Notes: generated by a model not told the origin, from the sequence alone. 26,461 nucleotides of DNA from an uncultured Victivallales bacterium (GCA_964436735.1 CAYTFM010000100.1:1-26461); one strand, 5' to 3'; numbered from the stretch's first letter, positions 9,735 through 25,752 are shown. Numbers and translations are program-made.

Positions 9735-9816
9735 TATGGCGTTTGCCGTAGTCAGGCTGCGTCTGACGTAAAAAAACTAAACCACGAACACGAACTAAAA
9801 ATTGAGAGGAGGACAC

Positions 9817-11805
9817 ATGAGGATGCGGGGCATGCTGGTGATGGCGCTGTGCGCGGCGGGAATGGCGGTGATGGGGGGGGAGCCATACAATGGTCCGAAG
9901 TTCATCGTCGGAGCCTGTACGCACCTTGGGTTCAGGCAGGGGATCCTGTCGGAGAATCTCTCGACGCTCAAACAGGCCGGGATCATGGCGCCCCGCGACG
10001 AACTCTCATGGAGTGGATGCGAGAAGGAGAAAGGTAAGTTGGAGATACCGCCGCATTATCCGACATTTGTCGAGGCCGCTACTGGCATGGGGCTTATCCC
10101 GTTGAACATCCTCGACTACGGCAATAAGCTTTACGATGACGGCGGCTACCCCCGTTCACCGGAAGCGGTCGACGCCTTCGCCCGCTACAGCGAGTTCGTC
10201 GCCACCACGTTCAAGTCGAAGATCCGTTTTCATCAGGTGTGGAACGAGTGGGACGGCGGCTGCGGCATGCCCAAGGAGCTCCGCGGCAAGGGCGATCCGG
10301 AAGCCTACATGAATCTGCTCAAGACCGTCTATCCGCGGCTGAAGAAGGTCGACCCTTCAATCGTGGTCGTGTCCAACTCCGTCTGCACAGGCGACAAATA
10401 TCTCGAGAAGCTGCTCGATCTCGGCCTTGTTGAAAACTGCGACGTCGTGGCGCTCCACACCTACAACTATGGCGAGGCGGCGCGGACTCCCGAGGATTGG
10501 CGTGACCGCATGGAGAAGGTCGACGGCATGCTCCGCAGTCACAACGGCGGCAAGGAGGTGCCTCTCTTTGTCACCGAGATGGGATGGCCGACCCAGATCG
10601 ACGCTCGCGGCACCACGCCTGAGGAGTACGCGAGTTTTCTCGCCCGCCTCTATCTGCTGGCGCGGACGTTCTCCTACGTCAAGGGGCTCTGGTGGTACGA
10701 CTACCAGGACGACGGTTGGGATTGGAAGTACAACGAGAACAACTTCGGCATGGTCAGGCCCGACCTCACTCCGAAGCCCTCCTATTTCGCCATGACTGAC
10801 ATCTCGGGACTCGTCGCCAAGGGCGACTTCGTGGAACGGATCGACACTGGTGACAAGGCTATCTGGGCACTCAAGTTCAAACTGCCCGATGGCAAGGACT
10901 GCCTCGCGCTCTGGAGCTCACATCGGCAGGACGGCTGGCAGGTCACGCTCACGGACGCCGGAGCGAAGAAGCCGGTCACGTGTCTCAAGGTCGGCACGGG
11001 CATGCGTGTCACCCGCGCCTGGGGCACCCGCGACTGGATCGCCAAGCGCGACGACCCGCTTAAGGTTGACGAATTGCCGATTGTGCTCGATGGGCGCCCC
11101 ACGCTTGTCGAGGGCGACTTGTCCAAGGTGACCGTCACCAAGGTTGTCTGTCGGGAGGCCCCGGAGGGCAAGCGACCGAAAAATGTCGTCTACCGCGTGC
11201 CCGACAAGATTGGCAGAGCCACTCCCGCCGCCGACGCGGGGCGGACGCAGGAATACGACTTCGGCGCCGACGCCGATTACCGGCTGGTTCTGGAGACGCC
11301 TCGCAAGGGACGCGAGGATCTCGACGCGAAGTTCTCGGCGAAATGGGACTGCGACAACCTTTACCTGCGCGTCACCGTGAGCGATGACGTCTTTTGCCAA
11401 AAAGAGACGCTTGAGGAGTCGTGGAAGGGCGATGGCATTCAGATGGCATTTCAAGAATTAGGGTTGGAGGGCGACACCGCGGGGAATCACACAGAGTTGG
11501 ATCTCGCGCTGACTCCGGACGGGACCAAGGTATACCGCCGCGCGGCTCAGAGTGGTGCCGCCCCCGGCGAGATCAAGGAGGTCGAATTGAAGGTTGATCG
11601 TGACGGCCTTCGTACAGTTTACAACATCAAAATCCCGGTCAAGTCGGTCGATCTTCCCGCCCTCAAGCCTGACACCATCATCGGATTCTCCATGCTGGTC
11701 AACGACAACGATGGGCCTGTGCGCAAGGGCTACCTCCACTGGGGCGACGGCATCGGCACAGGGAAAAATCCACTGCTCTTCAACTGGCTGATGATGGAGA
11801 AGTGA
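9817..11805 (+). CDS. Glycoside hydrolase, clan GH-A paralogue, with a C-terminal CBM9-like carbohydrate-binding domain
   Basis: A signal peptide is followed by HQVWNEWDGG and LFVTEMGWPT. The C-terminal ~200 aa (DAKFSAKWDCDNLYLRVTVSDD...GDGIQMAF...FSMLVNDNDG) resembles CBM9/DOMON-like domains. The RBS GAGAGGAGGA precedes ATG 9817; the ORF-track start at 9802 is a TTG inside that RBS. Confidence 0.6.
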   Translation: MRMRGMLVMALCAAGMAVMGGEPYNGPKFIVGACTHLGFRQGILSENLSTLKQAGIMAPRDELSWSGCEKEKGKLEIPPHYPTFVEAATGMGLIPLNILDYGNKLYDDGGYPRSPEAVDAFARYSEFVATTFKSKIRFHQVWNEWDGGCGMPKELRGKGDPEAYMNLLKTVYPRLKKVDPSIVVVSNSVCTGDKYLEKLLDLGLVENCDVVALHTYNYGEAARTPEDWRDRMEKVDGMLRSHNGGKEVPLFVTEMGWPTQIDARGTTPEEYASFLARLYLLARTFSYVKGLWWYDYQDDGWDWKYNENNFGMVRPDLTPKPSYFAMTDISGLVAKGDFVERIDTGDKAIWALKFKLPDGKDCLALWSSHRQDGWQVTLTDAGAKKPVTCLKVGTGMRVTRAWGTRDWIAKRDDPLKVDELPIVLDGRPTLVEGDLSKVTVTKVVCREAPEGKRPKNVVYRVPDKIGRATPAADAGRTQEYDFGADADYRLVLETPRKGREDLDAKFSAKWDCDNLYLRVTVSDDVFCQKETLEESWKGDGIQMAFQELGLEGDTAGNHTELDLALTPDGTKVYRRAAQSGAAPGEIKEVELKVDRDGLRTVYNIKIPVKSVDLPALKPDTIIGFSMLVNDNDGPVRKGYLHWGDGIGTGKNPLLFNWLMMEK

Positions 11806-11806: not shown

Positions 11807-14269
11807 ATGCGTCAAACAATCGCGTGCCCTGTGATGGGACACATGGCGTGGGCGGTCGTGCGGCATGCATGGAGGCTGTCAGTCGTCGTGTCCTGCTTGT
11901 CGGTCGTGTCGAATGTTCGTGCGGCTGCGGATGCCGCGATTCCTGCGGCAGAGGCAGGAGGGTGTGGCGAGGTGCTGCTCGACGACTGCGCAAGCATGTC
12001 GCGGTGGCGGTATCACAATGGCGGAGAGTTCCCGGGCGCGAAGGGGGGGCTTGAGAAGGATCCTGTGGGCAAGGGGCTGAAGTTGTCCTACGATTTTGGC
12101 GGAGGCGGATCCTATGTGGGGGCGGGATTGTACGGCGCGTTCCCCCCGGCGGCCGACGTGGCGCGGGTGGCTTTGACGGCACAGGGGGACTGCATGCTGT
12201 TCTTCCGGCTTGTCGACTCCCGTGGTCGCACATATCAATGGGAGAAGCAGAAGCGCGTCGCCGGACAGCACGCCGTGTTGCTGAGCATGACGGCTGGCTG
12301 GTCGGGCGCGTGGGGCGGCCCGAAAGAGACGAAAGCGGACAGCGCGCCTCTCCTGCCCGTGAAGGAGCTGTGGATGTGCGTGGCGAACGCCGATGGCGTC
12401 GCGAAGTTGGGAGCCGTGACGCTGACGAGTGTCTCGGTGGGAAGTTCGAAAGGTGTGATCGCGTCCACGGAACCCGTTGTCGGCGAAGACTTCTCGTGTT
12501 CCTTTGGCGGGTGGCGTGTCACGGGGACGTGGGGCAGTCACGGGTGGCGGAACACGTATCTCCGCGTCGGCGCGGAGGGGGGAGCTGCCCCTGCGGAACT
12601 CGCGCTCGATCTCCCGGCCATGGGACGGCATAAAGTTTTCCGCCTCCACCTCGAACCCGGAAAGACCGAATCCGCCGAGTTCTCCCCGGGACTCCCCAAT
12701 GGCGGGAATCCCCGCAACACGTACCAGATCGCGCTGAGCCTCTCGGTCGGCAGGGAGCACTACGAGAGAATCGTTGTACTCCGCGGCGTGGAGTCGGACA
12801 AAACCGACTTTGGCGCGCCGAAACCAAGCTCGTCGATCGAACGCTCGAAATTTGGCACCTGCGTTCATTTCTCGCACGTCAACCCGGCGGATCCACACTC
12901 GTGGCCGGAGTGGCGCGACTACCAGTGGTTCGTCGACCGGATAGCCGGCGGCGGCATCAAATGGATCCGCGATGGCATCAGAACCGACAAGAGCGCCGAG
13001 GGAACCTACACGCTCAATCCGCACGACGTCGAGTGGGCGCGCTACGCGAAGAGCAAAGGGCTGAGAATCCTGTGTGTCATCTCGATGAACGCCCATGAAC
13101 CAGTGGATGAGTTTGTCGCACGCTGTGAAGCTCTGGCGGAGCGGACGCGTGATCTGGTCGACGCGTTCGAGCTTGGCAACGAGCCGAACAACTTCGGCGG
13201 TTGGCTTAAGAAGTACGGCGGCACGTGGAACGGCAAGGAGGAGGATAACTCCACCTCCGGGTGGGTCAAGGAGCATCTGAAAAGCACCAACGCCGGAGCC
13301 GTGGCGCTCAAAAAGATCAGACCTGAAACCCCGGTGGTCGGGCTTGGCGCATGCTCGCCGACGAACTTCCGCTATCTGGACCTTGGCGTCTCTCCCGCTC
13401 TCGACGGCGTGGTTGATCATCCCTATCCGTACTGCATGCCTCCCGAGAAGATACCCTATGGCTGGGGCATGGAGAAGCGCGACGGCGTCAAGGTCGGCGA
13501 CGCCAACCACACGCTCGAGGGGCTCGTCCGCTCGTACCATGAGAAGTTCGCGGCCACCGGCGCGCCGAGACAGTTGTGGTTCACCGAGTTCGGGTTCTCC
13601 ACGTTTCTCTTCGATGGGGAAAAGACGGAGAAATGTCTCTATGCCGGATTCTCCGAGGAGGCGCAGGCGGTCTACATCGCGCGGGGATATCTGCTCAGCA
13701 GCGTGCTTCCTGTCGAGGCGATCTTCCAGTATGATTTCACCGATGATTACCATTCCGTCCCGCGTGATGCTGAGGCCAATTTCGGCATGTGGCGCGCCGA
13801 CCGTTCTCCCAAGCCGTCGTATGGCGCGGTGACGAGGATTTGTTCACTGCTGGCAGGCTATGAGGCCGACGCCGGCGCCGGCGTCTCCATCACCGCCGCT
13901 CCACTGCACCGCGGCATGGAACGGACGGAGTTGGTGCGGAACTGGGACGATACCACCTTGACCGCCGAGAATGGCGTGCGCGCCCATGCCTTCACCTCGA
14001 AGGCGAAACCCACTACGCGCATGCTGGCGGTCTGGTCGCAACTGCCTTTCTCGAAAGAGCACCATAACCGCGTCGCCACGATCAAACTCACCGGCTGGAA
14101 GGACTTCGGTGTCGATGCGGTCGCCATCGACCTGATCGATGGCAGCACTTTTGACGCGCCAGTGAAGAGGGAGGGCGACGACCTCGTCCTTGACCGCCTA
14201 TTCCTTGGCGCGCATCCACTGATGATCAGCTTCCAGTCTTCCGGGAGTCGCACCAAGGAAGGGGAGTGA
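11807..14269 (+). CDS. Multidomain glycoside hydrolase, clan GH-A paralogue
   Basis: A canonical acid/base motif [12 protein letters not shown] and nucleophile LWFTEFGFS are present. An N-terminal extension of ~330 aa and a C-terminal beta domain flank the core. The start ATG is 1 nt after the preceding stop (tgaaatg), which indicates translational coupling. Confidence 0.6.
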
Positions 14270-14273: not shown

Positions 14274-14951
14274 GTGAGCAACGATGGAAAACGCCATGTG
14301 GCTGCGAGTGCTTTCACGCTCATCGAGCTCTTGGTGGTGGTCGCGATCATCGCGATACTGGCGGCCCTGCTGCTTCCTGCGTTGAGAGCCGCGCGGGAAC
14401 GCGCAGTCTCCCTCTCCTGCATGAGCAACATGCGGCAAGGCGGGCTTGCCATGCTCAGCTACGTCAATGACAATGTGGGCTATCTCCCTCCGAGTTTGTG
14501 GGAAGGCTCGGGCAAGGGGAAGTATTGGACGAACATTTTGGTCGACAACGACTATATGACGCTGCCGGGGGGCTGGAACAACAAGGCGTGGGGCAATGCG
14601 GGGAAAGGCAATAACATGCTCGTCTGCGTCAGTTCTCAGAAGGCCCGCACCCCCCAATACGAAAGAGCGTATGGCTATGCGCACGGTCAGTGGGGCCATG
14701 GTCCGTTCGACAACAAACCCTACATGATGACCAAGACCTCCCGTCCCACGGAACGGCTCCTGCTGACCGACTACAACACGCCGATCGCCTTCTGCCGCGG
14801 ATGCTGCGGGGACGTCTCGCAGTGGCTGCGGCCAGTCCATCCGTACGAAATGGGCGTCAACGTCGTGCTCATGGACGGACATGGCTCATGGAAAGACGTG
14901 CGCATTCTCTCGGGTGACACCGAGGACATGTGGGGGCACGCCACGCAGTGA
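14274..14951 (+). CDS. Second prepilin-type H-X9-DG pseudopilin-like protein
   Basis: Reads ...[25 protein letters not shown] and later [15 protein letters not shown]. The start is a GTG lying 4 nt after the GH stop, with its RBS AAGGAAGGGGAG inside the 3' end of the upstream gene. Confidence 0.75.
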
Positions 14952-15157
14952 AAACGACTTGGCGAGAGGTCGCTGTCAAGGATCACAAAAACGCGAACGG
15001 CCCACGTTGGGGCGGCAAGAATGACGGCATCTGGCGCGGACCGCTCAAGGGGATGTCCCTCATCGTGGACCGTGGCAAACTCAAGCGTCCTGAGATGAAG
15101 CGAGCACGGTTGCTGGTCGAGGAGATCGAGGTTATTCCGACGCCCTCGGCGAAATGA
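14930..15157 (+). pseudogene. C-terminal gene fragment paralogous to the 207-aa secreted protein at 25753-26376
   Basis: TWREVAVKDHKNANGPRWGGKNDGIWRGPLKGMSLIVDRGKLKRPEMKRARLLVEEIEVIP aligns with the last ~65 residues of the 25753..26376 product (EWQEIFVDPKGVNSTYSGGQCDGVWCGALKGISIILEKGKLKRPDLKRGKLLVDLVEVLP). The first ~140 residues, including the signal peptide, are absent. The fragment overlaps the 3' end of the upstream gene. Confidence 0.4.
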
Positions 15158-15298
15158 CGATCATGAATCAAAACCCGCATTATGCCCACGAGGAGCATCT
15201 GTGTTTTTTCTCTGAGAACGCCCAGTTCCAGTTCGGCCCTTCTGTCAATCTTTATTATCGGTAAGGGCCGCATTAGGGGCAACGCTGTCCTGTTGGGT

Positions 15299-15333
15299 GA
15301 GGCGATGCATCGCCTCGCTTATTGTGTACTTTT
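15299..15333 (+). terminator. Perfect 18-bp palindrome GAGGCGATGCATCGCCTC plus a T-rich tail; putative bidirectional terminator between the convergent GH operon and hsdM
   Basis: The palindrome is at 15299-15316. It is followed on the plus strand by gcttattgtgtactttt. It lies 2 nt from the hsdM stop (15319-15321). Confidence 0.35.
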
Positions 15334-16782
15334 GAGATCTTCGGCGATGGTGGCGAACTGTTCCAAGGCGGCCTCCAGGTCGTCGGTTATCTCCTGTGCG
15401 ATGACCTCCGGGGCGGGAAGATTGGCGGACTCCTCCAGCGAGTCATCCTTCAGCCAGAAGATGTCCAGGTTCACCTTGTCGCGCTTCAGCAGCTCCTCGC
15501 AGGTGAAGCCCTTGAAGCGTTCCGACTCCTTGCGTTCGTGACGGTTCGCCGGATTGAAGCGGGTGACGAAGTCGTCGAGGTCGGATCGCTTGAGCGTATT
15601 CTCTTTGAGCGTGAAATGCAGGTTGGTGCGCAGGTCGTAGATCCAGAGCTTATCCGTCCACGGCTTTTCCCGCGCCGGCTTGCGGTCGAAGAAAAGGACG
15701 TTCGCCTTCACCCCCTGGGCGTAGAAGATGCCGGTGGGCAGGCGCAGCAGCGTGTGGACGTCGGCCTGCTTGAGAAGGGCGCGGCGGATCGTCTCTCCGG
15801 CCCCGCCCTCGAAGAGGACGTTATCAGGTAGGACCACCGCCGCCCGGCCGTTCTGCTTGAGGATCGTGAAGATGTGCTGGAGGAAGTTGAGCTGCTTATT
15901 GCTCGTGGTGGCCCAGAAGTCGTCGCGGTTGATGATGAGCGACTCCTTTTGTTGTTCCCCCGCCTCGTTGACGATCGTCACGCTGCTTTTCTTGCCGAAG
16001 GGCGGATTGGCGAGCACCATCTCGTACTCGCCGTGCTTTCCGGCGAGGGCGTCCTTGGTGACGACCGGCAGATCGCTGTCGGAGTCGCCGCCGCTGCCGT
16101 GCAGCAGCAGGTTCATGGCGCACAGCCGCGTCACGCCGTCCACAAGCTCGATGCCGTAGAGCGTGCTGTTCTTGAGACGCTTCTTCTGCTCGCGGTCGAG
16201 CGAATGGCTTTTGACAAGGTAGTCATGCGCCGCCAGCAGGAAGCCGCCGGTGCCGCAGGCGGGGTCGCAGATGGCGTCGCCCGGCTTCGGGGCCATCACG
16301 TCGACCATGGCGGCGATCAGGGGGCGCGGCGTGAAATATTGCCCGGCTCCCCCCTTCACGTCCTCGGCGTTCTTCTGGAGGAGCCCCTCGTAGGCGTCGC
16401 CCTTGACGTCGGAGGAGAGGCTCGACCACTGCTCCTTGTCGATCAGGTCGACGATCAGCCGCCGAAGCTTGGCGGGATCCTGGATCTTGTTCTGCGCCTT
16501 GCGGAAGATGACGCCGAGCATCCCGGGCCGTTTCCCAAGCTCCTCAAGGGTGTGTCGGTAGTGCGTCTCCAAGTCGTCGCCATCAAGCCGCAGGAGCGAC
16601 TCCCAGTTGAACCCTTTTGGGACGGGCGAGTCCTTCTTGAACGGCGGCTTGCTTTGTTCGTCGGCCATCTTGAGGAACAGCAGATAGGTCAACTGTTCGA
16701 CATAGTCGCCATACGACAGGCCGTCGTCCCTCAGGATATTGCAGTAGTTCCATAGCTTTGCGACAAGTGCTTCAGATCTCAT
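15319..16782 (-). CDS. hsdM: Type I restriction-modification system methyltransferase subunit HsdM
   Basis: HsdM N-terminal helix bundle (LWNYCNILRDDGLSYGDYVEQLTYLLFLKMADEQ), YFTPRPLIAAMV, AdoMet motif I DPACGTGGFL and catalytic NPPFG are present. The RBS GGGAGA precedes the start. Confidence 0.9.
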   Translation of the reverse strand: MRSEALVAKLWNYCNILRDDGLSYGDYVEQLTYLLFLKMADEQSKPPFKKDSPVPKGFNWESLLRLDGDDLETHYRHTLEELGKRPGMLGVIFRKAQNKIQDPAKLRRLIVDLIDKEQWSSLSSDVKGDAYEGLLQKNAEDVKGGAGQYFTPRPLIAAMVDVMAPKPGDAICDPACGTGGFLLAAHDYLVKSHSLDREQKKRLKNSTLYGIELVDGVTRLCAMNLLLHGSGGDSDSDLPVVTKDALAGKHGEYEMVLANPPFGKKSSVTIVNEAGEQQKESLIINRDDFWATTSNKQLNFLQHIFTILKQNGRAAVVLPDNVLFEGGAGETIRRALLKQADVHTLLRLPTGIFYAQGVKANVLFFDRKPAREKPWTDKLWIYDLRTNLHFTLKENTLKRSDLDDFVTRFNPANRHERKESERFKGFTCEELLKRDKVNLDIFWLKDDSLEESANLPAPEVIAQEITDDLEAALEQFATIAEDLKSTQ

Positions 16783-16802: not shown

Positions 16803-17675
16803 TTACAAATCTCTATCAAGTAATTCTTTTACCCACAGTCGGTCACGGTAGGCTCTCAAATAGAGGCGAGCAGCGGTAGAAAACTCAGCTTGAGCTCTGA
16901 CTTTTTTGATGAGTTCTTTTTTGTGATACAAATAATTAGACTCGTTTCCGCCAGCCTTTGCGTCATCTCCTTTTAAGACATGTTCCTCAATATCTATTGC
17001 GAGTTGTTTCCGCTTTCTCACCAATGCAATTTGCTTCAAATGGTATAGTTCAATGCTTGCCTCTACTCGATCAATTGTCATCTGATCACTCTTTGCGGGA
17101 TGAGGAGATCCATCGGGGAGGAATGTAAGGAGTTTTGTGTCGTCGACATTCACCGGATCTAACAATTTTGATCGCTCGCAAGGATCACTTTTACTATGAG
17201 CGTATGATGGAGGCGGAATTATAGGAAAATGGTCTTGCTTGCCACCTTCTGTTCCGCCGATATCTCGCCTCCTACAGTTGCAGAATGTGCAGGATAAACG
17301 GAAATTTTTCCAATCGAAGGCAAGCCACGTATAGCCAGGATGTGTATCTTCCTCAATGACAGAGTTTTTTGGGCGGAAATGATCAACGGACATGTCAGAG
17401 CGGTCTTGTTTAGTTTCACAATACCAACATTTGTCATGACTTGCTTCCCGCAGTGCTTCTTTAGCAGCACTCCATACCGATGATTTTAAATTGATTGCCT
17501 TGTGTCTTGCCTCAAGGCAGATGACATTTAACTCACTTCCGGTTTTCCCTTTTGATTCAGCTTCATCTTTAGCTGCAGTCACCTTTCCCTCAACAAACCT
17601 TTCAGCTTCCTCTACTATTTTTTTCCAATCGGAAGGGAGACAGCAGCAAACGTCATCCTGAAGGATAAACCTCAT
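16803..17675 (-). CDS. HNH endonuclease, Septu PtuB-like (TIGR02646-type)
   Basis: The HNH core reads CWYCETKQ...SVDHFRPKN...WKNFRLSCTFCNCRR (C-x2-C, DH, N, C-x2-C). A strong RBS GAGGAAGG precedes it. Its ATG overlaps the stop of the upstream ATPase ORF by 4 nt (ATGA). GC is about 43%. Confidence 0.65.
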   Translation of the reverse strand: MRFILQDDVCCCLPSDWKKIVEEAERFVEGKVTAAKDEAESKGKTGSELNVICLEARHKAINLKSSVWSAAKEALREASHDKCWYCETKQDRSDMSVDHFRPKNSVIEEDTHPGYTWLAFDWKNFRLSCTFCNCRRRDIGGTEGGKQDHFPIIPPPSYAHSKSDPCERSKLLDPVNVDDTKLLTFLPDGSPHPAKSDQMTIDRVEASIELYHLKQIALVRKRKQLAIDIEEHVLKGDDAKAGGNESNYLYHKKELIKKVRAQAEFSTAARLYLRAYRDRLWVKELLDRDL

Positions 17676-20600
17676 ATCTTGCCTTCCTCATGCTCAATCT
17701 CATCCAATATTTTGTCGGTCTCTTTGGCAAGGTTCTCGATGTCCTTTTTGTTCCAAGCCGGTTTATGCAGAATATCACGAGCTTTTCGTCTGCGCCCAAG
17801 AGCCTGTAAGTAGATCCGATAATAAGGGTCAGAACTAGCGGATTTGAACCCTAAGTGCTCAACTTCTTTAGTCAAATCTTGTAGTTTTTTCAGATCGTCT
17901 ACCGAAACTCTTTTCTTTCCGGCCAATTCCGCATGTTTGTCGAGCAAGCACAGTGTCTCATCATCCAAATCAGATTTCAGCCCAAACATTTCGCTTGTAA
18001 GAATTCCTGTAAAGCCCATGCCTCTTAGGTTTTCGCCAGCCAGGGCTGCGAAGCACTCCTCAGTTTGTTCGCGGCGTTTTAAAAGGTGAATATTCTCCTT
18101 GAGCAGTCCAGCGATTGCTAAAGGATCATGTGTCGATAGAAGCACCTGGCTATTCAACCGTTTCTCAAGTTCTTCGAATGGAAGACGCTTGGGAGAGTTT
18201 TTGTCGGTGACATCCCCTACTAAGGCGTCCAAAAGCAGATGCAAGTATCCAAGCTGCCAGTGGGGATTCAAGTGGGTATCTGGTTCATCCAGAAGGACGA
18301 GAGATTGATTCATCTTCGTGAAACGAAGCAGGCCGAGAACCATCATAAGCTGTTGTTCTCCTTCGCTCATTTCTTTGAAGGTTACAACGGTCTGCTTTGT
18401 TGCTGTTGCGTTTATCCGAATGCGGATTCGCACCTCGTGAATGATTGATGAGAAGTCAGTGCATTCTAAGGCGACAAAGAAGCTGGTCGGGTCAGCATAT
18501 TCCGAGGCTAGTTTTTGCAGGTGTTTTTTACTCGGAAGAAGCAGGAAATAATGATCGCCTGCGCTTTCCTGAAATCCATCATCCACTCGTTGTTGTAAGA
18601 CCATATGCGCAATCGAGTGGCGGCGAAGGTGTTCCAGAACGGGACGAAGTAGTCCGTCTGCGCCCCAGAAATCCTCAGGATTGTTGTTGCGATACCATCG
18701 CGGACGCTTTAAAACAAAGAGAACTGATTCGAGATCTTCGATGCGTAGATGCTTCTTCAAAAAACTGTGGATTCCCGGGTCATCCTCATAAAAAAAAGCA
18801 AGCAGCGCATATTTCGCATGTTGGGTTTCAGCGTTGAAGAATCGTCTTTCTTCCAACAGACGTGCAAGGGTTTCCTCATCGTACGTTTTCTGCTTTAATA
18901 GCCTATTGTAGTGTTCTTGTTTCGGTTCTGAGAAAAGGTCAGCAAACCTTTTGCTTGGGCCGGAGTAGTATCCAAATACAAAATGGGGTAATGGAATCTC
19001 TTCCCGTTTACATATATTAAAGTCGATATTGCCCGATTTATGATTGCGTTTCGATGCTATCTTTGCTTGGGGCTTGCGCAAATTGATTTGCCAATCAATC
19101 TCGACCAATTGCCCATCTATCTCGTAACGAATGCGATAGTCTTCCAAGCCAGCCTGCGGTGTCCATTTGTCTTTTGTTTGCCATTTATAGAGGTCGCGAA
19201 AGATAGCAACAAGTACTTCAAACAGGTTCGATTTTCCCGTGCCGTTCCAGCCGAGAAGCACGTCGACTGCATGGTTCGGATCAAATATCACTGAATAGTC
19301 TTCTAAATTCTTGAACTTTTTGATCCAAATTTCATGAAGACGGAAGGGGCCAGACGGTTTTCTATTAGAATTATGCCGATGATGAGATTTCTTTGCAAGT
19401 TGCTTTTGCCCTGTAAAGCTCTTAATGAGTTTTGCCGAATCTGCGATTGTGTCATAGAACTCATAAACCTCTTCGCGTCCGAATTGTGCGGCATTGAATA
19501 AATCCCTAGCAGTGGGTGTTCCGACAGCTACACTTAACGCAGTTTCAAGCACACGTTTCCGGGCTTCAGATGATTTCATGGAAGAAACTTTCTTGCTCTT
19601 ATGAAGCTTTCTTTGCTTGGGCTGTTCTGATGGAGTCGCAATTAGGTTTACCTTGGGGACATGGATATGTTCCAGCAGCTTTCTTTCAAGCCCATCACAT
19701 GGGTCTTGTGACACCAGTTGGCCAGAGAAGGCCTGTTGAAGGATTTTTTGGCGAAGCAGAATTCCCCGTTGGAGGTTGGTATTCACCACCGCCTCCAACT
19801 CCTCCACCACGCTCATCCGTCGCTCGACCTCCGTAACAATTCTCGTCTGCTCGTCAAGCGGGGGGAGAGGAAACGGAATCGTTGAGAATTTCTCTGCTCC
19901 AAGATGGTTTATGCCGACGCCAACAGCGACCTGAGCAAAAATGCCGTTAATGTAAAAGTGCCTAAGCACAAGAAGAGGGAATCTCGAATCGAGGAGAACA
20001 GGTTGCAGGCGAATGATAGTGTTCTGAAAGCAACATTGAGGCAATTCTTCGTGCCAGATTGCCGGTTTTCCCACTTGGGATATGCTACCAGACGCCTCGG
20101 ATATGATTAGATCCCCACGTTTCAATAGATAACGCTCTCTCTCGTCTGGTGTGAATTCCATCTCAAGCACATCGCTCAAATCGAGACCGTTCTCAGTTAT
20201 GTTTGCGGCGCGCATGTATTTTGTCGGAAAGTCCCTCGAAATATTCTTTGGCGAGCGTTGGCGACCTAATTGAACAGAGCCCAGTTGTCCCACACTCGCC
20301 CACGTCCATCCTTCTGGGAGCTGGGGGAGGTTGGCTGTGTCGGGAGGGGCGGGTTCTTTGTATATGCCGCGGCCGGACCATTTCCGGCGGCGTACAGTGA
20401 GGATGCGCTTCAGGAGTTGCTCCCCATTCTCATACACTTCTGATTTCTTTCCAGTTACATCTGGCTTGGCCAATTCCGCTTCGGTTGGAACTATCTTGCC
20501 CTCGCAAGCAGCCTTGAGCACGGCGGCGCGGTAACGCTTGAGATTTGCCTGAACCCGTTTCAATGCCGCCATCCCCGCCTCCAAACGCGTGAACTGCTTC

Positions 20601-21076
20601 TCGATCTCCGCGACGATAAGACGTTGTTCTGGCAAGGAAAAAGAAGGAATCAAGAATGAAGAAATATCTTTGGGACGAACGGCAGGATAGAGCGCACCCT
20701 GTACTTTTTGACACATCTCATCAATGAAATCAGGTGTCTGGACGGCGTAGAAAAGGAATCTGGGCTCCTCGCCTTTTGCACGCAGCACATGAAACCCAGT
20801 TGAACCAATGGAGCCGTCAAGGTCAGGCGGAACAAGTGCCACAGCATTCAGATTAGGGCGTGTCATTGACACGAGAACGTCGCCCATTCTCAAAACCTGC
20901 TTTGCCCGACTTGGAGCTTGGGCCACTGGCAGTGTCTTAGGATCGACGATCCGTTTTGTCTCACGATCAATGCTACTGATGTCCACGTAACTGAATTCAT
21001 GCCTACCACTTGGAGGACCGGTTTGTTCAACCCGCGCCTCAGTCATATCCCCAATTGTTTTCCCTGCGTTCTTCAC
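17672..21076 (-). CDS. hsdS: In-frame fusion of a complete type I RM specificity subunit (HsdS, aa 1-455, two TRDs) to a PtuA/OLD-like ABC ATPase (aa ~577-1134) through a Lys-rich ~120-aa linker
   Basis: The HsdS part has TRD1, the central conserved region IPSFSLPEQRLIVAEIEKQFTRLEAG, TRD2 beginning LPEGWTWASVGQL, and the distal conserved region PFPLPPLDEQTRIVTEVERRMSVVEELEAV...LLRQKILQQAFSGQLV. No stop follows. The linker is ...KLHKSKKVSSMKSSEARKRV...KKSHHRHNSNRKPSG. The ATPase part begins FRLHEIWIKKFKNLEDYSVIF, has Walker A VLLGWNGTGKSNLFE, Walker B/D-loop SLVLLDEPDTHLNPH and H-loop VLLSTHDP. The start is GTG at 21076, overlapping the upstream gene stop by 4 nt. Confidence 0.7.
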   Translation of the reverse strand: MKNAGKTIGDMTEARVEQTGPPSGRHEFSYVDISSIDRETKRIVDPKTLPVAQAPSRAKQVLRMGDVLVSMTRPNLNAVALVPPDLDGSIGSTGFHVLRAKGEEPRFLFYAVQTPDFIDEMCQKVQGALYPAVRPKDISSFLIPSFSLPEQRLIVAEIEKQFTRLEAGMAALKRVQANLKRYRAAVLKAACEGKIVPTEAELAKPDVTGKKSEVYENGEQLLKRILTVRRRKWSGRGIYKEPAPPDTANLPQLPEGWTWASVGQLGSVQLGRQRSPKNISRDFPTKYMRAANITENGLDLSDVLEMEFTPDERERYLLKRGDLIISEASGSISQVGKPAIWHEELPQCCFQNTIIRLQPVLLDSRFPLLVLRHFYINGIFAQVAVGVGINHLGAEKFSTIPFPLPPLDEQTRIVTEVERRMSVVEELEAVVNTNLQRGILLRQKILQQAFSGQLVSQDPCDGLERKLLEHIHVPKVNLIATPSEQPKQRKLHKSKKVSSMKSSEARKRVLETALSVAVGTPTARDLFNAAQFGREEVYEFYDTIADSAKLIKSFTGQKQLAKKSHHRHNSNRKPSGPFRLHEIWIKKFKNLEDYSVIFDPNHAVDVLLGWNGTGKSNLFEVLVAIFRDLYKWQTKDKWTPQAGLEDYRIRYEIDGQLVEIDWQINLRKPQAKIASKRNHKSGNIDFNICKREEIPLPHFVFGYYSGPSKRFADLFSEPKQEHYNRLLKQKTYDEETLARLLEERRFFNAETQHAKYALLAFFYEDDPGIHSFLKKHLRIEDLESVLFVLKRPRWYRNNNPEDFWGADGLLRPVLEHLRRHSIAHMVLQQRVDDGFQESAGDHYFLLLPSKKHLQKLASEYADPTSFFVALECTDFSSIIHEVRIRIRINATATKQTVVTFKEMSEGEQQLMMVLGLLRFTKMNQSLVLLDEPDTHLNPHWQLGYLHLLLDALVGDVTDKNSPKRLPFEELEKRLNSQVLLSTHDPLAIAGLLKENIHLLKRREQTEECFAALAGENLRGMGFTGILTSEMFGLKSDLDDETLCLLDKHAELAGKKRVSVDDLKKLQDLTKEVEHLGFKSASSDPYYRIYLQALGRRRKARDILHKPAWNKKDIENLAKETDKILDEIEHEEGKI

Positions 21077-22170
21077 TCTTCATCCTTTGCTTTGTCATTC
21101 CATGCGAATTTGCGGATCAAGGTGTTGAAGCGGCTCCATTTATGGGTCAGGAACTGATAACGTCCCGCGACGATTCCCGGAGAGACACCGAGTTCGTTTG
21201 CGATCGTCTTGATCTCGGACTCGATCTGCGAGACCTTGATGCGCCCATTGTACCTGGCGGGGATCAAGGTTTCGGCGGCAAACTCGTCCGCCTGTTTTTC
21301 CCGTGGATCATCCTTGGAACCGTCGTTGATCATGAGATCTTTCTTCGAGTCATGCAAAACGTGCCCGAGTTCATGGAAGAAGGAAAACCATAGTTTATCT
21401 TCGCCTTTGCCACGCAAATTCAGCAGGATCATAGCTTTTGTCGGCGTCAACCACCGGGTCGCTCCGTTCCACGGCGCTTTTTTCATTTCCTTAACCAGTG
21501 CCAACGCCACGCCACACTCAGCACATATCCTTCGCATTTCAGCGACCATTGCTGATGGGTCTGCCTTGCAGGACAGCGAACGCAAAGCATGTATTTGCTT
21601 CAGAAGAGCAGAACGATCATAAGGACGGCAGTCGCACTTCTGGGCTTGCAACTCGCCCATGCGGATCCATGAGGATGCAGGGCCAGGCAGAGACTCAAAG
21701 CATTGAGAACGCCTTGCCGCCACTTCGGGTCTTTCCCATAACTCGCACCATGCCCGCACACTGCTGACGCCATAAAACTTCAACGTGTCGCATAGCAACG
21801 CATGCTTGTCGCTGTTTTGGGGAATAACTTTCCTGCTAATGAGCTCGGAGGTGGGAATTGTCTTGAGCCACTCGAGATCAGACGCCAAACGCTGTTTTTC
21901 CTCCAGCTTGGACAGTTGCTCGCGGTAGTTGAGCTCAAGATTGTTCCAGAACCGGGCGGGAGAGCCAAAGACAAGTTCAAGCCGATTGGCGGTTTCGAGT
22001 GTTATCGGCTGTTCGCCTTTGAAGATTCGATTAATGGTCTGTTGCGTCGTTTCAAGCCGAATGGCAAGCTCTTGCTGCGTCCAGCCATTGAACTCCATGT
22101 GCTCGCGTATAGTTTCGCCTGGTGGAACCGCATAATCCGGGTCGTATGTATATTTGCGTTTCGCTTTCAT
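21073..22170 (-). CDS. HigA-like XRE-HTH antitoxin domain fused to an ImmA/IrrE-family (COG2856) zinc metallopeptidase
   Basis: The N-terminus is IREHMEFNGWTQQELAIRLETTQQTINRIFKGEQPITLETANRLELVFGSPARFWNNLELNY, a HigA/VapI-type HTH. The C-terminus has HEXXH (FFHELGHVLHD) followed by EKQADEFAAETLIP, the ImmA/IrrE signature. A strong RBS GGAGGAA precedes it. Its ATG overlaps the higB-like stop (ATGA). Confidence 0.7.
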   Translation of the reverse strand: MKAKRKYTYDPDYAVPPGETIREHMEFNGWTQQELAIRLETTQQTINRIFKGEQPITLETANRLELVFGSPARFWNNLELNYREQLSKLEEKQRLASDLEWLKTIPTSELISRKVIPQNSDKHALLCDTLKFYGVSSVRAWCELWERPEVAARRSQCFESLPGPASSWIRMGELQAQKCDCRPYDRSALLKQIHALRSLSCKADPSAMVAEMRRICAECGVALALVKEMKKAPWNGATRWLTPTKAMILLNLRGKGEDKLWFSFFHELGHVLHDSKKDLMINDGSKDDPREKQADEFAAETLIPARYNGRIKVSQIESEIKTIANELGVSPGIVAGRYQFLTHKWSRFNTLIRKFAWNDKAKDEE

Positions 22171-22529
22171 TGGCGGTTCCTCCGCTGGTATTTCTGGTCA
22201 TGCGTGTCTTCGATGTCGATTACTTCAATAGCTGTCACTTGCTCCAAGTCGATGCCTCCGTCAGTTTTTGTTGGTACGGGAATATTTGCCGGTATGAAGA
22301 GCAACCTATATGGATACTGGAGGTCAACCGAAAAAACGCCTTTCCTATTGACAAGCTCATGGCACTGAGGCGGTGGTAGGTAAGAGATGTCACTTAGCGT
22401 CTCCCCCGCTTTCAGTTCCGCCAGGCGTTGCCGGAGTTTTGAGGCGCACTGCGGGCCAAGCTCCCTGACGCCCGCCTTCTCCACATCGCAGATCTTTTTC
22501 AACTTGTTTGCTCTAAATGATATCTCCAT
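22167..22529 (-). CDS. HigB-like toxin (RelE/ParE superfamily, plasmid-killer family)
   Basis: The 120-aa product reads MEISFRANKLKKICD...LRQRLAELKAGETLSDISYLPPPQCHELVNRKGVFSVDLQYPYRLLFIP. This matches the HigB pattern and it lies immediately upstream of a HigA-type HTH gene. The start coordinate is taken from the ORF track; my manual count of the start codon differs by 1 nt. Confidence 0.6.
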   Translation of the reverse strand: MEISFRANKLKKICDVEKAGVRELGPQCASKLRQRLAELKAGETLSDISYLPPPQCHELVNRKGVFSVDLQYPYRLLFIPANIPVPTKTDGGIDLEQVTAIEVIDIEDTHDQKYQRRNRQ

Positions 22530-22761: not shown

Positions 22762-25557
22762 TCATGCAACAAGCGCCTGGTTCAACTCGTCCAGGATGCC
22801 GTTCAAGTCACCGCCGAAGAGCTGCGAGGCCTTGCCGAGGCCGCCTTGCTGGCTGAAGGGGGCGTAGTCGAAGTCCTCCGGCTCGACGCTGAGGCTGGTG
22901 GCGATGTGGTCGCGGATAAGGTTGAGCCAGGAGAGCTGCTCGGAGGCGAAAACCGTGCCGGCCTTGGCCTTGTCCATGAGCCATTCGTTGAACCGCTCAT
23001 GGACGGACTCGGCGAAGGGCTGAAGCAGCGGTTGCTGCTCCAGGGCGAAGCGGACGAGCGCGACGAGGTCGGCGAAGCGTCCGGTCTGCGAACGTCCTTT
23101 GACCTTGCCGGGGCGGGTGGCGGCGAAGGCGTTCCAGAGGCGGTCCTCCGTCCATGCGGCGTGGTTCTCGCAAAGCTTCCGCTCCAACTCCTTGAGCATC
23201 TGCTCGGTGACGCGTTGGCGGTAGGGGCGGCTGTAAAGGATTTGCAGGGCGGAGATCTCCGCGTGATGCTGTTCGAGGTAGGCGCGGAAGGATTGCACAA
23301 GATTGGCGGCCCGCTCCTTGGCAGCGGCGTCGAACCCTTGCTCGACCACGGCGTCGATGGTGACGGTGTCGATGGTCTGCTCGCTGGCCTTCTTGACGGC
23401 GAGGATTTTCTCGCGGAGTTCGGGGCTGTCGAAGGGAAGGCAAGCGGTGGCGACAAGGTCGGCCTGTGCCGCGGCAAGATCCTCCCGCGAGGACTGGAAG
23501 TCCGTGGGCTTGCCCGTGACGGCTTTCGCGTGGACGAGATCCGGATCGAGGGCGTCGAGGAGGGCTCGGGCGAGATCGGGAAGGGATTTGCCGCCCGCAA
23601 GCTCCTTGAGCCCCTTGGCGTCTTCCTGCGTGCTATCCTGACTGAGCCGCGCGAGGCGTCCGGCAAGGGAGCTGATGGTGTCCTCGTTGCGCTTGCCGAG
23701 GGCGACGCCGAGGAGGAGATCTTTGAGCGGCACTGTGCGTTTGCGCTCGAGGGGGCGGGAGTCGGTCTTGTCGCTTTCGCAGACGCCGACGGCGTCGACG
23801 ATCACGAAATGCGTCTTGGCCCGGGCGTCGGCCCCGCTGACGGACTGCAGGTCGGTCGGGCTGAGCACGCGGGTGCCGCGCCCCTTCATCTGCTCGAAAT
23901 AGACCCGGCTGCGGACGTCGCGCAGAAAGAGGAGGCATTCCAGCGGCTTGATGTCCGTGCCGGTGGCGATCATGTCCACTGTGACGGCGATACGCAACTG
24001 CGGCGAGGTGCGGAACAATTGGATAAGATCCTCGGCCTTGGCCGGCTTGCCGGTCTCCGGATGCTTGGACTGGTAGGTGATCTTCTTGGCGAAGTCGTTG
24101 CCCTTGCCGAAGACCTCCCGGACGATGTGGACGACATCCTCGGCATGCGAGTCGTCCTTGGCGAAGATCAGCGTCTTGGGCACCATGGCGCGTCCGGGGA
24201 ACAGCTCCGTGAAGAGGGCGTCTTTGAAGGCTTTGATGACGGTGCGGATCTGGGAGGGGACGACGACGGAGCGGTCCAGCTCCTGTTTGGTGTATTCCAG
24301 ATCCTCGTCGAGGCGCTCCCAGCGGCGGGCGCGGGTCTCCTTGCTGCGCTTGTCGACGTAGAAGCCCTTCTCGACAAGGCCGCCCTGTTCCGAGACCTGC
24401 GTCTTGATCCGGTAAACCTCGTAGCCGACGTTCACGCCGTCGGCCACGGCGCGTTCGTGTCTGTATTCCGTGACAAGGTTCTGATGAAAGAAGCCGATGG
24501 TCTGCTTGGAGGGGGTGGCGGTGAGGCCGATGATGAAGGCGTCGAAGTAGTCGAGGACCTGCCGCCAGAGGTTGTAGATGGAGCGATGGCACTCGTCGGT
24601 GACGATGAAGTCGAAGGTCTCGATGGGGATCGCCGGGTTGTAGGCGACCTCGCGGGGGCGCTCGTTCGCCTGGGAGAGCTCGAAGGCGGACTTCTCGTCG
24701 AGATCCTCGTCAAGCTCCTCGCCCCGCAGCATCGCGTAGAGCCGCTGGATGGTGCAGACGCAGACGCGGGCCACCGGATCAAACTGGTTGGAGTTGAGCC
24801 GCTGGACGTTGTGCAACTCGGTGAACTTGCGGCCGGTGTCGGGCGTGACGAACTGGTCGAACTCGGATTTGGCCTGACGTCCAAGGTTGGCGCGGTCGAC
24901 GAGGAAGAGGACGCGGCGGGCTCCGGCGTGTTTGATCAACCGGTAGATGAAGGCGCAGGCGGTGAAGGTTTTGCCCGCACCGGTGGCCATCTGGATCAGG
25001 GCGCGCGGGTGGTTGGCGGCGAAGGACTGTTCCAGCCGCGTGATGGCCTCGGTCTGGCAGGTGCGCAGACCGCGCGAGACAAGCGGATGAGCGGCGGGCG
25101 CGGTTTGCAGGCGCATGCGCAGGGTGTCGGGCTCGGTGGCCATGGCGGACAAGGTTTCGGGTCGATGGAAGGAGAAGATTTGGCGGGAACGTGGATCAGG
25201 ATCGCGTTCGTCCCTGAAAAAGGTTTCGACGCCGGTGGATTCGTAGCGGAAGGGAAGCGATCCAGCCTTGGGCCTCAGGAACTCGGGGAGCGTGTCGCCA
25301 TAATAAGCCGTTTGGTCGGCGACGATGGAAAGGGTCTTGCCCTCGCGTTTCGCTTCGACAACCCCGACAGGCGCGCGGTTCGCGATCAGGAGGTAGTCGC
25401 ATCGGCCGCCGGGCAGCGGCACTTCGCGCAAGGCGACGCCTGGTGAGGCTCCAAGGTTGCACCTCACATAGTCCTGAACCAGCCAGCCCGAGTCGGCAAG
25501 CATCCGGTCGATCTTCTCACGTGCCTTTTGTTCAGGCGTTCCTGGCATTCGTGCCAT
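22762..25557 (-). CDS. hsdR: Type I restriction enzyme R subunit HsdR (SF2 helicase/endonuclease)
   Basis: The N-terminus EQKAREKIDRMLADSGWLVQD is HsdR-like. Helicase motif I is LIQMATGAGKTFTA and motif II VTDECHRS; the remainder is the long SF2 body. Start is the ATG at 25557 with GAGGA upstream. The ORF-track extension to 25635 adds 26 residues with no RBS. Confidence 0.85.
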   Translation of the reverse strand: MARMPGTPEQKAREKIDRMLADSGWLVQDYVRCNLGASPGVALREVPLPGGRCDYLLIANRAPVGVVEAKREGKTLSIVADQTAYYGDTLPEFLRPKAGSLPFRYESTGVETFFRDERDPDPRSRQIFSFHRPETLSAMATEPDTLRMRLQTAPAAHPLVSRGLRTCQTEAITRLEQSFAANHPRALIQMATGAGKTFTACAFIYRLIKHAGARRVLFLVDRANLGRQAKSEFDQFVTPDTGRKFTELHNVQRLNSNQFDPVARVCVCTIQRLYAMLRGEELDEDLDEKSAFELSQANERPREVAYNPAIPIETFDFIVTDECHRSIYNLWRQVLDYFDAFIIGLTATPSKQTIGFFHQNLVTEYRHERAVADGVNVGYEVYRIKTQVSEQGGLVEKGFYVDKRSKETRARRWERLDEDLEYTKQELDRSVVVPSQIRTVIKAFKDALFTELFPGRAMVPKTLIFAKDDSHAEDVVHIVREVFGKGNDFAKKITYQSKHPETGKPAKAEDLIQLFRTSPQLRIAVTVDMIATGTDIKPLECLLFLRDVRSRVYFEQMKGRGTRVLSPTDLQSVSGADARAKTHFVIVDAVGVCESDKTDSRPLERKRTVPLKDLLLGVALGKRNEDTISSLAGRLARLSQDSTQEDAKGLKELAGGKSLPDLARALLDALDPDLVHAKAVTGKPTDFQSSREDLAAAQADLVATACLPFDSPELREKILAVKKASEQTIDTVTIDAVVEQGFDAAAKERAANLVQSFRAYLEQHHAEISALQILYSRPYRQRVTEQMLKELERKLCENHAAWTEDRLWNAFAATRPGKVKGRSQTGRFADLVALVRFALEQQPLLQPFAESVHERFNEWLMDKAKAGTVFASEQLSWLNLIRDHIATSLSVEPEDFDYAPFSQQGGLGKASQLFGGDLNGILDELNQALVA

Positions 25558-25752
25558 GCCTTTCCTCGATATGGGGTCGGACAGGAAACAGCGTATACTT
25601 ATTCTATGACCCGGGGCGCGGTTTTCAAGTTGCATTCAAGGGGTGATCCCCTCGTCAACCTGGGAGATCGCCGATTGTTTTATTGGAATATTTGCCGGCC
25701 AGGATGTAATTATTGGGCTGAAATCTCGAAAACAGCCTAATCATGAGGAGCT

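Follow-up and report, generated by a model that had tools for sequence, protein, structure and literature searches.

An hsdS::ptuA Fusion Gene in a Type I Restriction-Modification Operon: A Possible Composite Type I Methyltransferase–Septu System

Introduction

Why is the ATPase of a Septu defense system encoded in one reading frame with the specificity subunit of a restriction-modification (RM) system of type I? The question is raised by a stretch of 26,461 nucleotides from an uncultured Victivallales bacterium (GCA_964436735.1 CAYTFM010000100.1:1-26461), which was analyzed over its whole length and is called the window in the following. Six co-oriented genes on its minus strand form one operon, namely hsdR, a HigB-like gene, a gene coding for a helix-turn-helix (HTH) and ImmA protein, the fusion gene hsdS::ptuA, the HNH nuclease gene ptuB, and hsdM. 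The Septu-like pair is located between the HsdS module and hsdM, as had been stated in an earlier interpretation made without database searches (here called the sequence-only reading). This reading explained the arrangement by horizontal acquisition. The effector pair would recently have entered a resident RM operon and would probably have created the fusion and displaced hsdS from its position after hsdM. The fused protein, its relatives in other genomes and the base composition of the operon were analyzed here, and they point to a different answer, a possible composite type I methyltransferase–Septu system in which HsdS tethers PtuA and PtuB (PtuAB) as an effector arm independent of HsdR.

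The Fusion Gene Encodes a Complete HsdS and a Full-Length PtuA

The fusion open reading frame (ORF) hsdS::ptuA (17672-21076, minus strand) codes for 1134 amino acids. The protein consists of a complete HsdS with two target recognition domains (TRDs), a disordered tether, a small helical domain, a second tether and a full-length PtuA ATPase. The HsdS module (19706-21076, minus strand; aa 1-457) comprises TRD1, the conserved region CR1, TRD2, and CR2. The PADLOC model Specificity_I (PDLC03127) matches aa 8-562 of the fusion with 3.8e-82, and the HsdS chains 5ybb, 3okg, and 2y7c were found as two-domain sequence matches in the PDB. In the AlphaFold2 (AF2) model the predicted local distance difference test (pLDDT) values of this module are mostly 80-92, and two long helices are formed by residues 148-192 and 407-451. 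With Foldseek, the N-terminal half of the fusion retrieves the HsdS structures 3okg, 5ybb, 7vs4, and 2y7c, with a target-normalized TM-score of 0.77 for 5ybb_D.

The HsdS module is followed by a tether rich in lysine and arginine (19571-19705, minus strand; aa 458-502), which is predicted to be disordered (AF2 pLDDT <50), and by a four-helix domain (19412-19570, minus strand; aa 503-555), which is called the C-terminal extension (CTE) of HsdS in the following. Its helices are predicted at residues 503-516, 523-529, 534-546, and 548-555 with a pLDDT of 68-87. A short tether (19343-19411, minus strand; aa 556-578; pLDDT <50 over aa 559-574) connects the CTE to PtuA, and the junction sequence PFRLHE(I/L)W is conserved in the clade of fused proteins.

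The PtuA ABC-ATPase module (17672-19342, minus strand; aa 579-1134) was identified by the PADLOC model PDLC00293 with 6.8e-148, aa 579-1132 being aligned to positions 2-525 of the 527 profile positions. The invariant motifs of this module are Walker A GWNGTGKSN (K615), the signature SEGEQQ (S904-Q909), Walker B LLDEPD (D930/E931), and the H-loop histidine H983. The AlphaFold model of the whole fusion has a pLDDT of 75.9, and the Foldseek matches listed for its C-terminal half are PtuA chains only.

PtuA and PtuB Belong to a Distinct Septu Subfamily

A profile of 26 PtuA sequences was compared to the PDB. The best match was 9n69, the ATPase of a type I-A retron (8e-19), followed by the Septu PtuA 8ee4 (1.4e-17) and further retron PtuAs, and PtuA chains were ranked above AriA, SMC, OLD, Rad50, and RecF. 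A relationship closest to RecF or SbcC, which the sequence-only reading had named as the outcome contradicting its assignment, was not what was found.

The ptuB gene (16803-17675, minus strand) codes for 290 amino acids. Its ATG overlaps the TGA of the fusion ORF as ATGA (17672-17675), and GAGGAAGG lies 6 nt 5′ of this ATG, within codons of the ATPase. Both the overlap and the strong ribosome binding site had been described before and are present at the junction. The same holds for the three HNH motifs, which are located in the ptuB ORF at aa 83-87 (CWYCE), 98-104 (DHFRPKN), and 128-136 (SCTFCNCRR). Invariant residues of PtuB are C83, E87, H99, R101, P102, K103, N124, and N133. The PADLOC model PDLC00330 matches over the full length with 2.4e-77, and no Pfam match was obtained. 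A profile of 31 PtuB sequences finds only PtuB chains in the PDB, those of the retrons Ec78/Eco7 with 1e-8 and the Septu chain 8ee7_C with 5e-3. The PtuB model has a pLDDT of 93.9, and all of its 11 significant Foldseek matches in the PDB are PtuB chains, including 8eea_G. The Septu-like nature of the pair, as it had been recognized before, is thus borne out by full-profile PADLOC matches, by profile matches in the PDB and by AlphaFold and Foldseek in agreement.

When PtuB and the fusion were compared to the PDB as single sequences with phmmer, no PtuA or PtuB was reached, and family profiles were required. PtuB scores 42.5 bits with the curated model TIGR02646, narrowly under the cut-off of 52.15. 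The NCBIfam models of the retron type (NF041760/NF041761) stay far below their cut-offs (PtuA 34.9 vs. 500 bits, PtuB 54.6 vs. 150 bits), and the fusion scores 99.3 bits with TIGR04435, for which the cut-off is 300. As neither the retron-type models nor TIGR04435 are reached, the pair belongs to a distinct Septu subfamily. A PtuA with the family profile and motifs, a PtuB with the HNH catalytic residues and the adjacent, co-oriented position of both genes agree with Septu; a self-contained system of two proteins with a free PtuA, which also belongs to its definition, is not seen here. The proteins are named only 'AAA family ATPase' and 'hypothetical protein' by NCBI.

Conservation of the Fusion and of the Gene Order

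Relatives were searched among 5.8 billion proteins and, with the PtuA half as query, among 1.84 billion cluster representatives. Furthermore, a scan of 185,579 species genomes yielded at least 522 relatives, of which the best 80 were surveyed together with five metagenomic loci (85 loci in total). The query used for ranking these loci included HsdS.

More than 20 proteins of 1000-1180 aa were found that combine Methylase_S with AAA_15/21. They were retrieved at 26-61% identity and have the junction and all ATPase motifs in common. The cluster search resulted in 221 clusters at E ≤ 1e-30; the approximately 12 nearest ones (≥48% identity) are all fused, and standalone PtuAs (500-570 aa) do not exceed 42% identity. 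The fused architecture is present in about a dozen clusters made at 50% identity and reaches down to 26-31% identity. At the level of loci, at least 13 fused ones besides the window were identified with 26-78% identity, and two more resemble frameshifted fusions.

The ptuA-ptuB pair adjoins hsdM in each of the 85 loci, and hsdS is located directly 5′ of ptuA in nearly all of them. The order hsdS-ptuA-ptuB-hsdM (S-A-B-M) was found in 46 loci and M-S-A-B in 34. Where hsdS and ptuA are separate genes, an overlap of 4 nt is the commonest spacing, and 57 of 68 loci are within 11 nt in either direction. A 4-nt overlap is also the commonest spacing between ptuA and ptuB (46 of 81 loci). The hosts belong to more than 10 phyla, including Planctomycetota, Verrucomicrobiota, Acidobacteriota, Cyanobacteria, Chloroflexota, Bacteroidota, Actinomycetota, and Proteobacteria. 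Loci from Planctomycetota, Acidobacteriota, Proteobacteria, Chloroflexota, and Bacteroidota have the complete order hsdR-hsdS-ptuA-ptuB-hsdM, and their HsdR and HsdM are of the families seen in the window; in such loci HsdR is about 50% and HsdM about 60-65% identical to the window proteins. A location of hsdS in front of hsdM is therefore ancestral in the family. The window fusion itself is a derived form.

Among close fusions, the PtuA part is 76% identical and the conserved regions of HsdS about 60%, whereas identity drops to 18% in TRD1 and 29% in TRD2. Divergent TRDs next to a conserved PtuA are what is expected of HsdS subunits that shuffle their specificities.

A second fused lineage is represented by locus L002, whose protein (subclade B) is the only one to pass TIGR04435 (340.9 bits) and has no CTE, whereas unfused relatives reach 124-158 bits. 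In the Pyrinomonadaceae loci L002/L003 the gene following the fusion (10218-11363, plus strand) codes for 381 aa and matches PDC-M62B/PDC-M01B, and PtuB weakly (9e-6). As this lineage lacks the CTE and has a different nuclease-like partner, the fusion to HsdS has arisen at least twice.

In Gammaproteobacteria the subfamily is large, with 5936 proteins at E ≤ 1e-60 among 8000 candidates scored. They include proteins from Salmonella, Klebsiella michiganensis, K. aerogenes, Enterobacter, Acinetobacter baumannii, Vibrio, and E. coli, and their source annotation is 'AAA family ATPase' only. A tblastn search of a phage collection gave no match.

A candidate fusion of PtuB and HsdM (P0364, locus L087, 5396-7367) was rejected as a likely frameshift artifact, because the contig has 2x long-read coverage and hsdM is split. 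Split or odd ORFs were also seen in L014 (270-3717) and L022 (1358-4839), where HsdS::PtuA is broken after the PtuA N-terminus; sequencing frameshifts or pseudogenes are likely in both cases.

Other domains were found fused to HsdS relatives as well (P0022, P0029, P0049, P0051, P0060, P0065, P0075, P0095), i.e., a DUF559/Vsr-like endonuclease together with PF18741, radical SAM, ImmA/HTH, and RayT/HsdR-like domains. In many further HsdS relatives, which are 630-780 aa long, the C-terminus is extended by a part without annotation. More generally, HsdS may serve as a scaffold to which effectors are tethered.

A C-Terminal Extension of HsdS Accompanies PtuA

The CTE is a previously unannotated helical domain of approximately 55-75 aa, which was detected by an iterated hidden Markov model (HMM) in 80 of the 85 loci. 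In the 62 unfused HsdS proteins that were scored, the median distance from its end to the C-terminus is 10.5 residues, and its coding sequence is located directly 5′ of ptuA. Of the other long relatives of HsdS (about 105), only 7 contain it. It is present in the plasmid-borne modules, too, and a comparison to Pfam with E up to 10 returned nothing credible. Position and co-occurrence make the CTE a candidate for the module that docks HsdS to PtuA, a contact which the fusion would make covalent.

Small ORFs in which the CTE is the only part of HsdS were observed directly 5′ of ptuA in L082 (9339-10007), L058 (11069-11464), and L041 (6924-7154). An hsdS of canonical length lies 1.7-2.4 kb away in these three loci, so that the CTE stays beside ptuA though hsdS is separated.

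HsdR Is an Optional Partner

HsdR was looked for with an HMM based on 24 diverse HsdRs in the 52 loci that are flanked by 5 kb or more on either side. It is adjacent in 16 of these 52 loci (none of the 7 fused and 16 of the 45 unfused ones), always upstream and on the same strand. The window is the only sampled fused locus with an adjacent, apparently intact hsdR. No other recurrent neighbor able to replace HsdR was found across the surveyed loci.

Modules without HsdR are also carried by mobile elements. The complete, conjugative Vibrio vulnificus plasmid NZ_CP012741.1 (70,069 bp, MOBF/MPF_F; L088/L090/L091) harbors M-S-PtuA-PtuB, and no HsdR-like ORF was found anywhere on it. In a Pantoea plasmid no HsdR is encoded within 7 kb of the module. 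Finally, an integrase/AlpA/RadC island beside yicG-ligB (L092-L095) contains only M-S-A-B in E. coli NCTC9966, NCTC11121 (LS483296.1, about 66.4-68.8 kb), and KFu019 as well as in other Enterobacteriaceae, and one identical PtuA of this island occurs in 191 collection blocks.

Proposed Mechanism and Alternative Explanations

By analogy to the retrons, the family seems to be a case in which a type I M2S core has co-opted PtuAB. The fusion is read as a sign that PtuA and HsdS interact physically. In the proposed composite type I methyltransferase–Septu system, HsdM2-HsdS would act as the usual sequence-specific methyltransferase core and methylate the host sites. PtuA would be docked at the HsdS C-terminus, covalently in the window and through the CTE in the relatives, and would carry PtuB like in the solved Septu complexes. 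Upon encounter of an unmethylated target on invading DNA, the ATPase cycle of PtuA would release or activate the HNH nuclease, and the invader would be cut in a sequence-directed, methylation-sensitive manner without need for HsdR. The window also encodes HsdR, and there one core would serve two effector arms. This reading is favored because HsdR is often absent, because M-S-A-B occurs alone on mobile elements, because the TRDs diversify and because precedents exist in MADS and in the hsdMS system of Klebsiella pneumoniae NUH66. We assign it a rough probability of 0.45, the mechanism being inferred.

Several points weigh against it. The universal linkage to hsdS is probably overstated, since the ranking query of the survey contained HsdS. 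Genomes without an adjacent copy could encode HsdR elsewhere, and the contact of CTE and PtuA is taken from their position only. The solved Septu complex has been described as an ATP-regulated PtuA hexamer with PtuB between the C-terminal domains of PtuA, and this hexamer would have to be squared with one HsdS per M2S1 complex. For the hsdMS of NUH66 (HsdS MDH8382952.1), the genome of which lacks HsdR, plasmid restriction was reported to depend on hsdS and the recognition site, and the authors found no nuclease. A link of this locus to ptuAB is a lead rather than evidence; no K. pneumoniae protein was among the top 120 matches of the family. In the Enterobacter locus L079 no ORF of the size of McrB or McrC was found 5′ of hsdM, judged by ORF sizes only. 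Finally, characterized PtuAB pairs of Septu and retrons have been reported to cleave tRNA-Tyr, to nick plasmids and to cause growth arrest or abortive infection. These activities fit a guarding function of PtuAB at least as well as DNA restriction.

A stronger claim within the same framework would be that the HsdS-tethered PtuA-PtuB is a true restriction subunit, which replaces the HsdR motor-nuclease on M2S with the CTE as docking module. We regard this as doubtful, though it would have consequences: if true, it would define a new class of ATP-dependent, methylation-sensitive restriction enzymes and could provide the 'missing endonuclease' of 'type I-like' systems which lack HsdR but restrict DNA in experiments, e.g., that of NUH66.

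The guarding function mentioned above would resemble that of PrrC. PtuAB would be kept silent on the type I complex via HsdS and would be freed when a phage anti-restriction protein (a DNA mimic like Ocr or ArdA, or an Stp-like peptide) disturbs this complex, leading to non-specific cleavage of tRNA or DNA and to aborted infection. The ABC-ATPase nuclease PrrC, which is encoded within a type I locus, is silenced by EcoprrI and activated by Stp of T4, and PARIS, another pair of ABC ATPase and nuclease, is triggered by Ocr. In addition, PtuAB of E. coli Septu and of retron-Eco7 cleave tRNA-Tyr upon infection, for which both the ATPase and the HNH motifs are needed. A sensor that monitors whether HsdS is occupied would need a covalent tether of this kind, and an intact HsdR is available in the window to be guarded. 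In contrast, an adjacent HsdR is lacking in about two thirds of the related loci and in all 7 other well-flanked fused loci, a complete conjugative plasmid being included among the loci without HsdR. PtuB is an HNH nuclease without an anticodon nuclease domain of the PrrC type, and a guard does not itself require fast-diversifying TRDs, though it would inherit them. A PrrC-like role of PtuAB is the main alternative to the favored reading and is considered less likely.

It is more improbable that PtuAB works independently as canonical Septu and is only embedded for selfish reasons or for co-regulation, the fusion being a neutral by-product of stop codon loss. Type I loci would in this case simply tolerate insertions, with the genes then moving and being expressed jointly. 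Embedding of this kind is known from DarTG2, which is located between hsdS and hsdR in enteropathogenic E. coli, and with the usual 4-nt overlap of hsdS and ptuA a single indel could fuse the two genes. An independent passenger would be hard to reconcile with the position of ptuA, which is fixed directly after hsdS and nowhere else in the locus in 80 sampled loci from two different type I families, and with a dedicated HsdS CTE co-occurring with PtuA. Moreover, the fusion arose in two lineages, and the fused forms have been retained with all motifs intact while diverging to 26-78% identity.

Base Composition and the Origin of the Arrangement

The explanation by recent horizontal acquisition was derived from base composition. 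The GC content of 16803-19350 is 0.445, compared to 0.612 in hsdM, just as the sequence-only reading had reported for this region, and to 0.605 in the window outside the low-GC block. The GC content at third codon positions (GC3) is 0.38 in ptuB, 0.47 in the PtuA part, 0.40 in the linker, and 0.51 in the HsdS part. It amounts to 0.59 in the HigB-like gene and 0.61 in the HTH-ImmA gene, to 0.84 in hsdR and 0.86 in hsdM, and to 0.71-0.85 in six other genes of the window. A comparison of GC3 with genome averages had been proposed as a check; relative to hsdM, hsdR and the six other genes of the window, ptuA and ptuB are clearly set apart (0.47 and 0.38 against 0.71-0.86). The limits given for the AT-rich block did not hold: low GC was confirmed for 16803-19350, whereas the block actually extends over approximately 16803-22529 and takes in the HsdS module and the two upstream genes beyond the Septu genes. 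In bins of 40 codons, GC3 shifts abruptly at the stop of hsdR and within the first 40-80 codons of hsdM.

A recent insertion of a low-GC ptuA-ptuB pair into a resident hsdR-hsdM-hsdS operon, which would have fused and moved hsdS, could account for the low GC3 of the pair and for the sharp boundaries. This explanation is already contradicted and has very little probability left. The HsdS half and the linker share the atypical composition, as do the two upstream genes, and around the block a search for direct or inverted repeats or an insertion scar found only chance-level short matches. A creation of the fusion by an insertion in the window is not supported, as at least 13 other sampled loci carry it and unfused relatives already have hsdS and ptuA translationally coupled. 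Nor is a displacement of hsdS, the order S-A-B-M recurring in many phyla. The nearest PtuA and PtuB (78 and 69% identity, in L001) are accompanied by the nearest HsdM (71%), which argues against an effector pair arriving alone. It had also been suggested to look for the cassette in other genomic contexts; in the 85 surveyed loci it was always found beside a type I methylase gene.

The compositional contrast is, moreover, not specific to the window. GC3 of PtuA and PtuB is lower than that of hsdM in 74% of the 85 loci, with a mean difference of -0.07; across these loci HsdS is likewise low compared to hsdM, and hsdR follows hsdM. The contrast is most pronounced in high-GC hosts, where it equals that of the window. 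GC3 in Dyella (L075) is 0.89 for R, 0.67 for S, 0.59 for A, 0.57 for B, and 0.91 for M, and the unrelated hosts of L069, L074, L028, and L038 are similar. As the low GC3 of S-A-B recurs in 74% of the related loci, it is a trait of the family and not the result of one recent event. It is consistent with a central S-A-B cassette that is swapped more frequently than the conserved hsdR and hsdM genes on its two sides. Alternatively, selection on codon use may differ. In the window, a replacement of the whole central cassette is possible.

An assembly or sequencing artifact, i.e., a frameshift merging separate hsdS and ptuA genes, is hardly credible, because although the related contigs L014, L022, and L087 (2x long-read coverage) show split or odd ORFs, 13 independent loci have the same single ORF with the conserved PFRLHE(I/L)W and a linker that stays in frame over more than 100 aa, and the start methionine of PtuA is replaced by in-frame residues.

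Further Genes of the Operon and Its Surroundings

The hsdM gene (15319-16782, minus strand) encodes a type I N6-adenine methyltransferase of 487 aa (Pfam N6_Mtase 1e-66 and HsdM_N; PADLOC MTase_I 2.9e-193) with the motifs DPACGTGGF and NPPF. It starts 20 nt after the stop of ptuB, and GGGAGA is found in this spacer. Two terminator-like hairpins were predicted 3′ of hsdM (15192-15174 and 15008-14990, minus strand) by a consensus scan as pattern matches only. They likely mark the end of the operon (14990-15192), as judged from this pattern. Apart from such consensus-level sites, nothing was found by the promoter and terminator scan.

The hsdR gene (22762-25635, minus strand) was annotated as an ORF of 957 aa for the type I restriction subunit with the Pfam domains ResIII, SWI2_SNF2, DEAD, and EcoEI_R_C. 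Its PD-(D/E)xK residues D80/E94/K96 and the Walker A motif GAGKT (219-223) are conserved in at least 90% of 24 HsdR homologues. The true start is probably M27 or M30 rather than the first ATG (25548-25635, minus strand), since homologues align only from aa 33 and since the first 40 codons have a GC3 of 0.47, compared to 0.8-0.9 for the rest. With HsdM, a two-TRD HsdS and an HsdR consisting of a PD-(D/E)xK nuclease and a superfamily 2 (SF2) motor, the window holds the components of a type I system, and the catalytic motifs of HsdM, HsdR, PtuA, and PtuB are all intact.

Two genes are located between hsdR and the fusion. The first one (22167-22529, minus strand) codes for a small HigB/RelE-like protein of 120 aa with a weak Pfam match to HigB-like_toxin (E=4e-3), and a homologue with 50% identity is encoded near the related locus L037. 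The second one (21073-22170, minus strand) codes for a protein of 365 aa with an HTH and an ImmA/IrrE (M78) metallopeptidase domain (Pfam HTH_3 and Peptidase_M78). It matches the PADLOC models PD-Lambda-2_B (2e-25, near full length) and capP (2e-10), and its stop overlaps the GTG start of the fusion ORF as GTGA. The two genes (21073-22529, minus strand) may encode a damage-responsive regulator pair like CapH/CapP or a toxin-antitoxin pair. A pair homologous to both (50 and 41% identity) lies 3.5 kb 3′ of hsdM in L037, and in L004 and L005 other genes of toxin-antitoxin-like or ribbon-helix-helix type are located 5′ of the fusion. The N-terminus of the window fusion (21040-21076, minus strand) does not contain the motif LPxGW, with which most homologous HsdS proteins begin. 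Acquisition of the abutting upstream pair may have removed some codons at this end.

On the plus strand, a protein with a prepilin-type N_methyl and a DUF1559 domain is encoded at 14274-14951, and GH5-like and CBM9 proteins are encoded nearby (7746-11805). The DUF1559 protein suggests a host like Planctomycetota, judged by the known occurrence of this domain. For the 820-aa ORF at 11807-14269 no Pfam match was obtained.

Significance

Septu is a common system, and how it senses infection is unsettled, as tRNA-Tyr cleavage, DNA nicking and control by ATP have all been reported. The covalent joining of HsdS and PtuA is Rosetta-stone evidence for Septu working physically with a type I methyltransferase core in a large subfamily. 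In the literature that was searched, the coverage of which is incomplete, neither an HsdS::PtuA fusion nor the linkage hsdS-ptuA-ptuB, an HsdS CTE or a frequent absence of HsdR was described. Annotators would now call such loci an incomplete type I RM system and an independent Septu system. Three questions are made testable by this family: whether M2S cores drive effectors other than HsdR, what the nuclease of restricting hsdMS systems without HsdR is, and whether Septu reads DNA methylation.

Comparison With Known Systems

The idea of M and S subunits working without HsdR has precedents. MADS, which comprises 8 genes with MAD6, MAD7, and MAD8 being mandatory, couples type I-like M and S to effectors other than HsdR and depends on an unmethylated site. 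Like the composite system proposed here, MADS and NUH66 show discrimination of self and non-self by M and S or hsdS-dependent restriction without HsdR. In the window, MADS models gave weak matches (MAD2 127 vs. 720, MAD5 24 vs. 400, and MAD3 21.5 vs. 420 bits), and the mandatory MAD6, MAD7, and MAD8 were not found in the operon.

PrrC in the EcoprrI locus is likewise a nuclease controlled by an ABC ATPase, which is encoded in a type I (IC) locus beside hsdS and is functionally tied to the RM complex. PrrC differs in being a single polypeptide of an N-terminal ABC ATPase and a C-terminal anticodon nuclease, with neither an HNH partner nor a fusion to HsdS. Furthermore, it almost always accompanies complete type I systems, whereas the window family often occurs without an adjacent HsdR. 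A PrrC model was not among the top PADLOC matches listed for the window.

The nesting of defense genes in type I RM, BREX, DISARM, and Hma loci has been published, including Septu in Hma and DarTG2 between hsdS and hsdR. Such embedded systems (Payne et al. 2024 preprint) share with the window a co-oriented defense pair inside a methylation-based system. They are separable, whereas the window family is characterized by a fixed position, translational coupling, an adaptor domain on HsdS and a covalent fusion.

TIGR04435, the 'restriction system-associated AAA family ATPase', is a curated sister family of RM-linked ABC ATPases, which is also found fused to HsdS in L002 and in P0026, the latter bearing this name at NCBI. 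Its fusions have no CTE and are paired with the 381-aa protein like PDC-M62B/M01B instead of a PtuB of the PDLC00330 type.

Retrons of type I-A, also known as Septu type II (Ec78/Eco7 and Ec83), represent another case of PtuAB being co-opted by a separate sensing module, and the retron PtuA has acquired elements for binding its partner. This partner is a reverse transcriptase with multicopy single-stranded DNA (msDNA), whereas it is the M2S core in the window family, and no reverse transcriptase is encoded among the genes of the window operon.

Finally, Septu type I (Doron 2018; 8EE4/8EEA) consists of the same two proteins with matching folds, overlapping genes and intact Walker A and B motifs as well as the residues H-N-N. 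Its PtuA is free, whereas that of the window forms the C-terminal half of an HsdS fusion, and the window PtuB is with about 290 aa longer than its solved homologues (about 215-260 aa). The solved proteins are reached from the window family by profiles only, and the sampled subfamily, unlike Septu type I, always adjoins hsdM.

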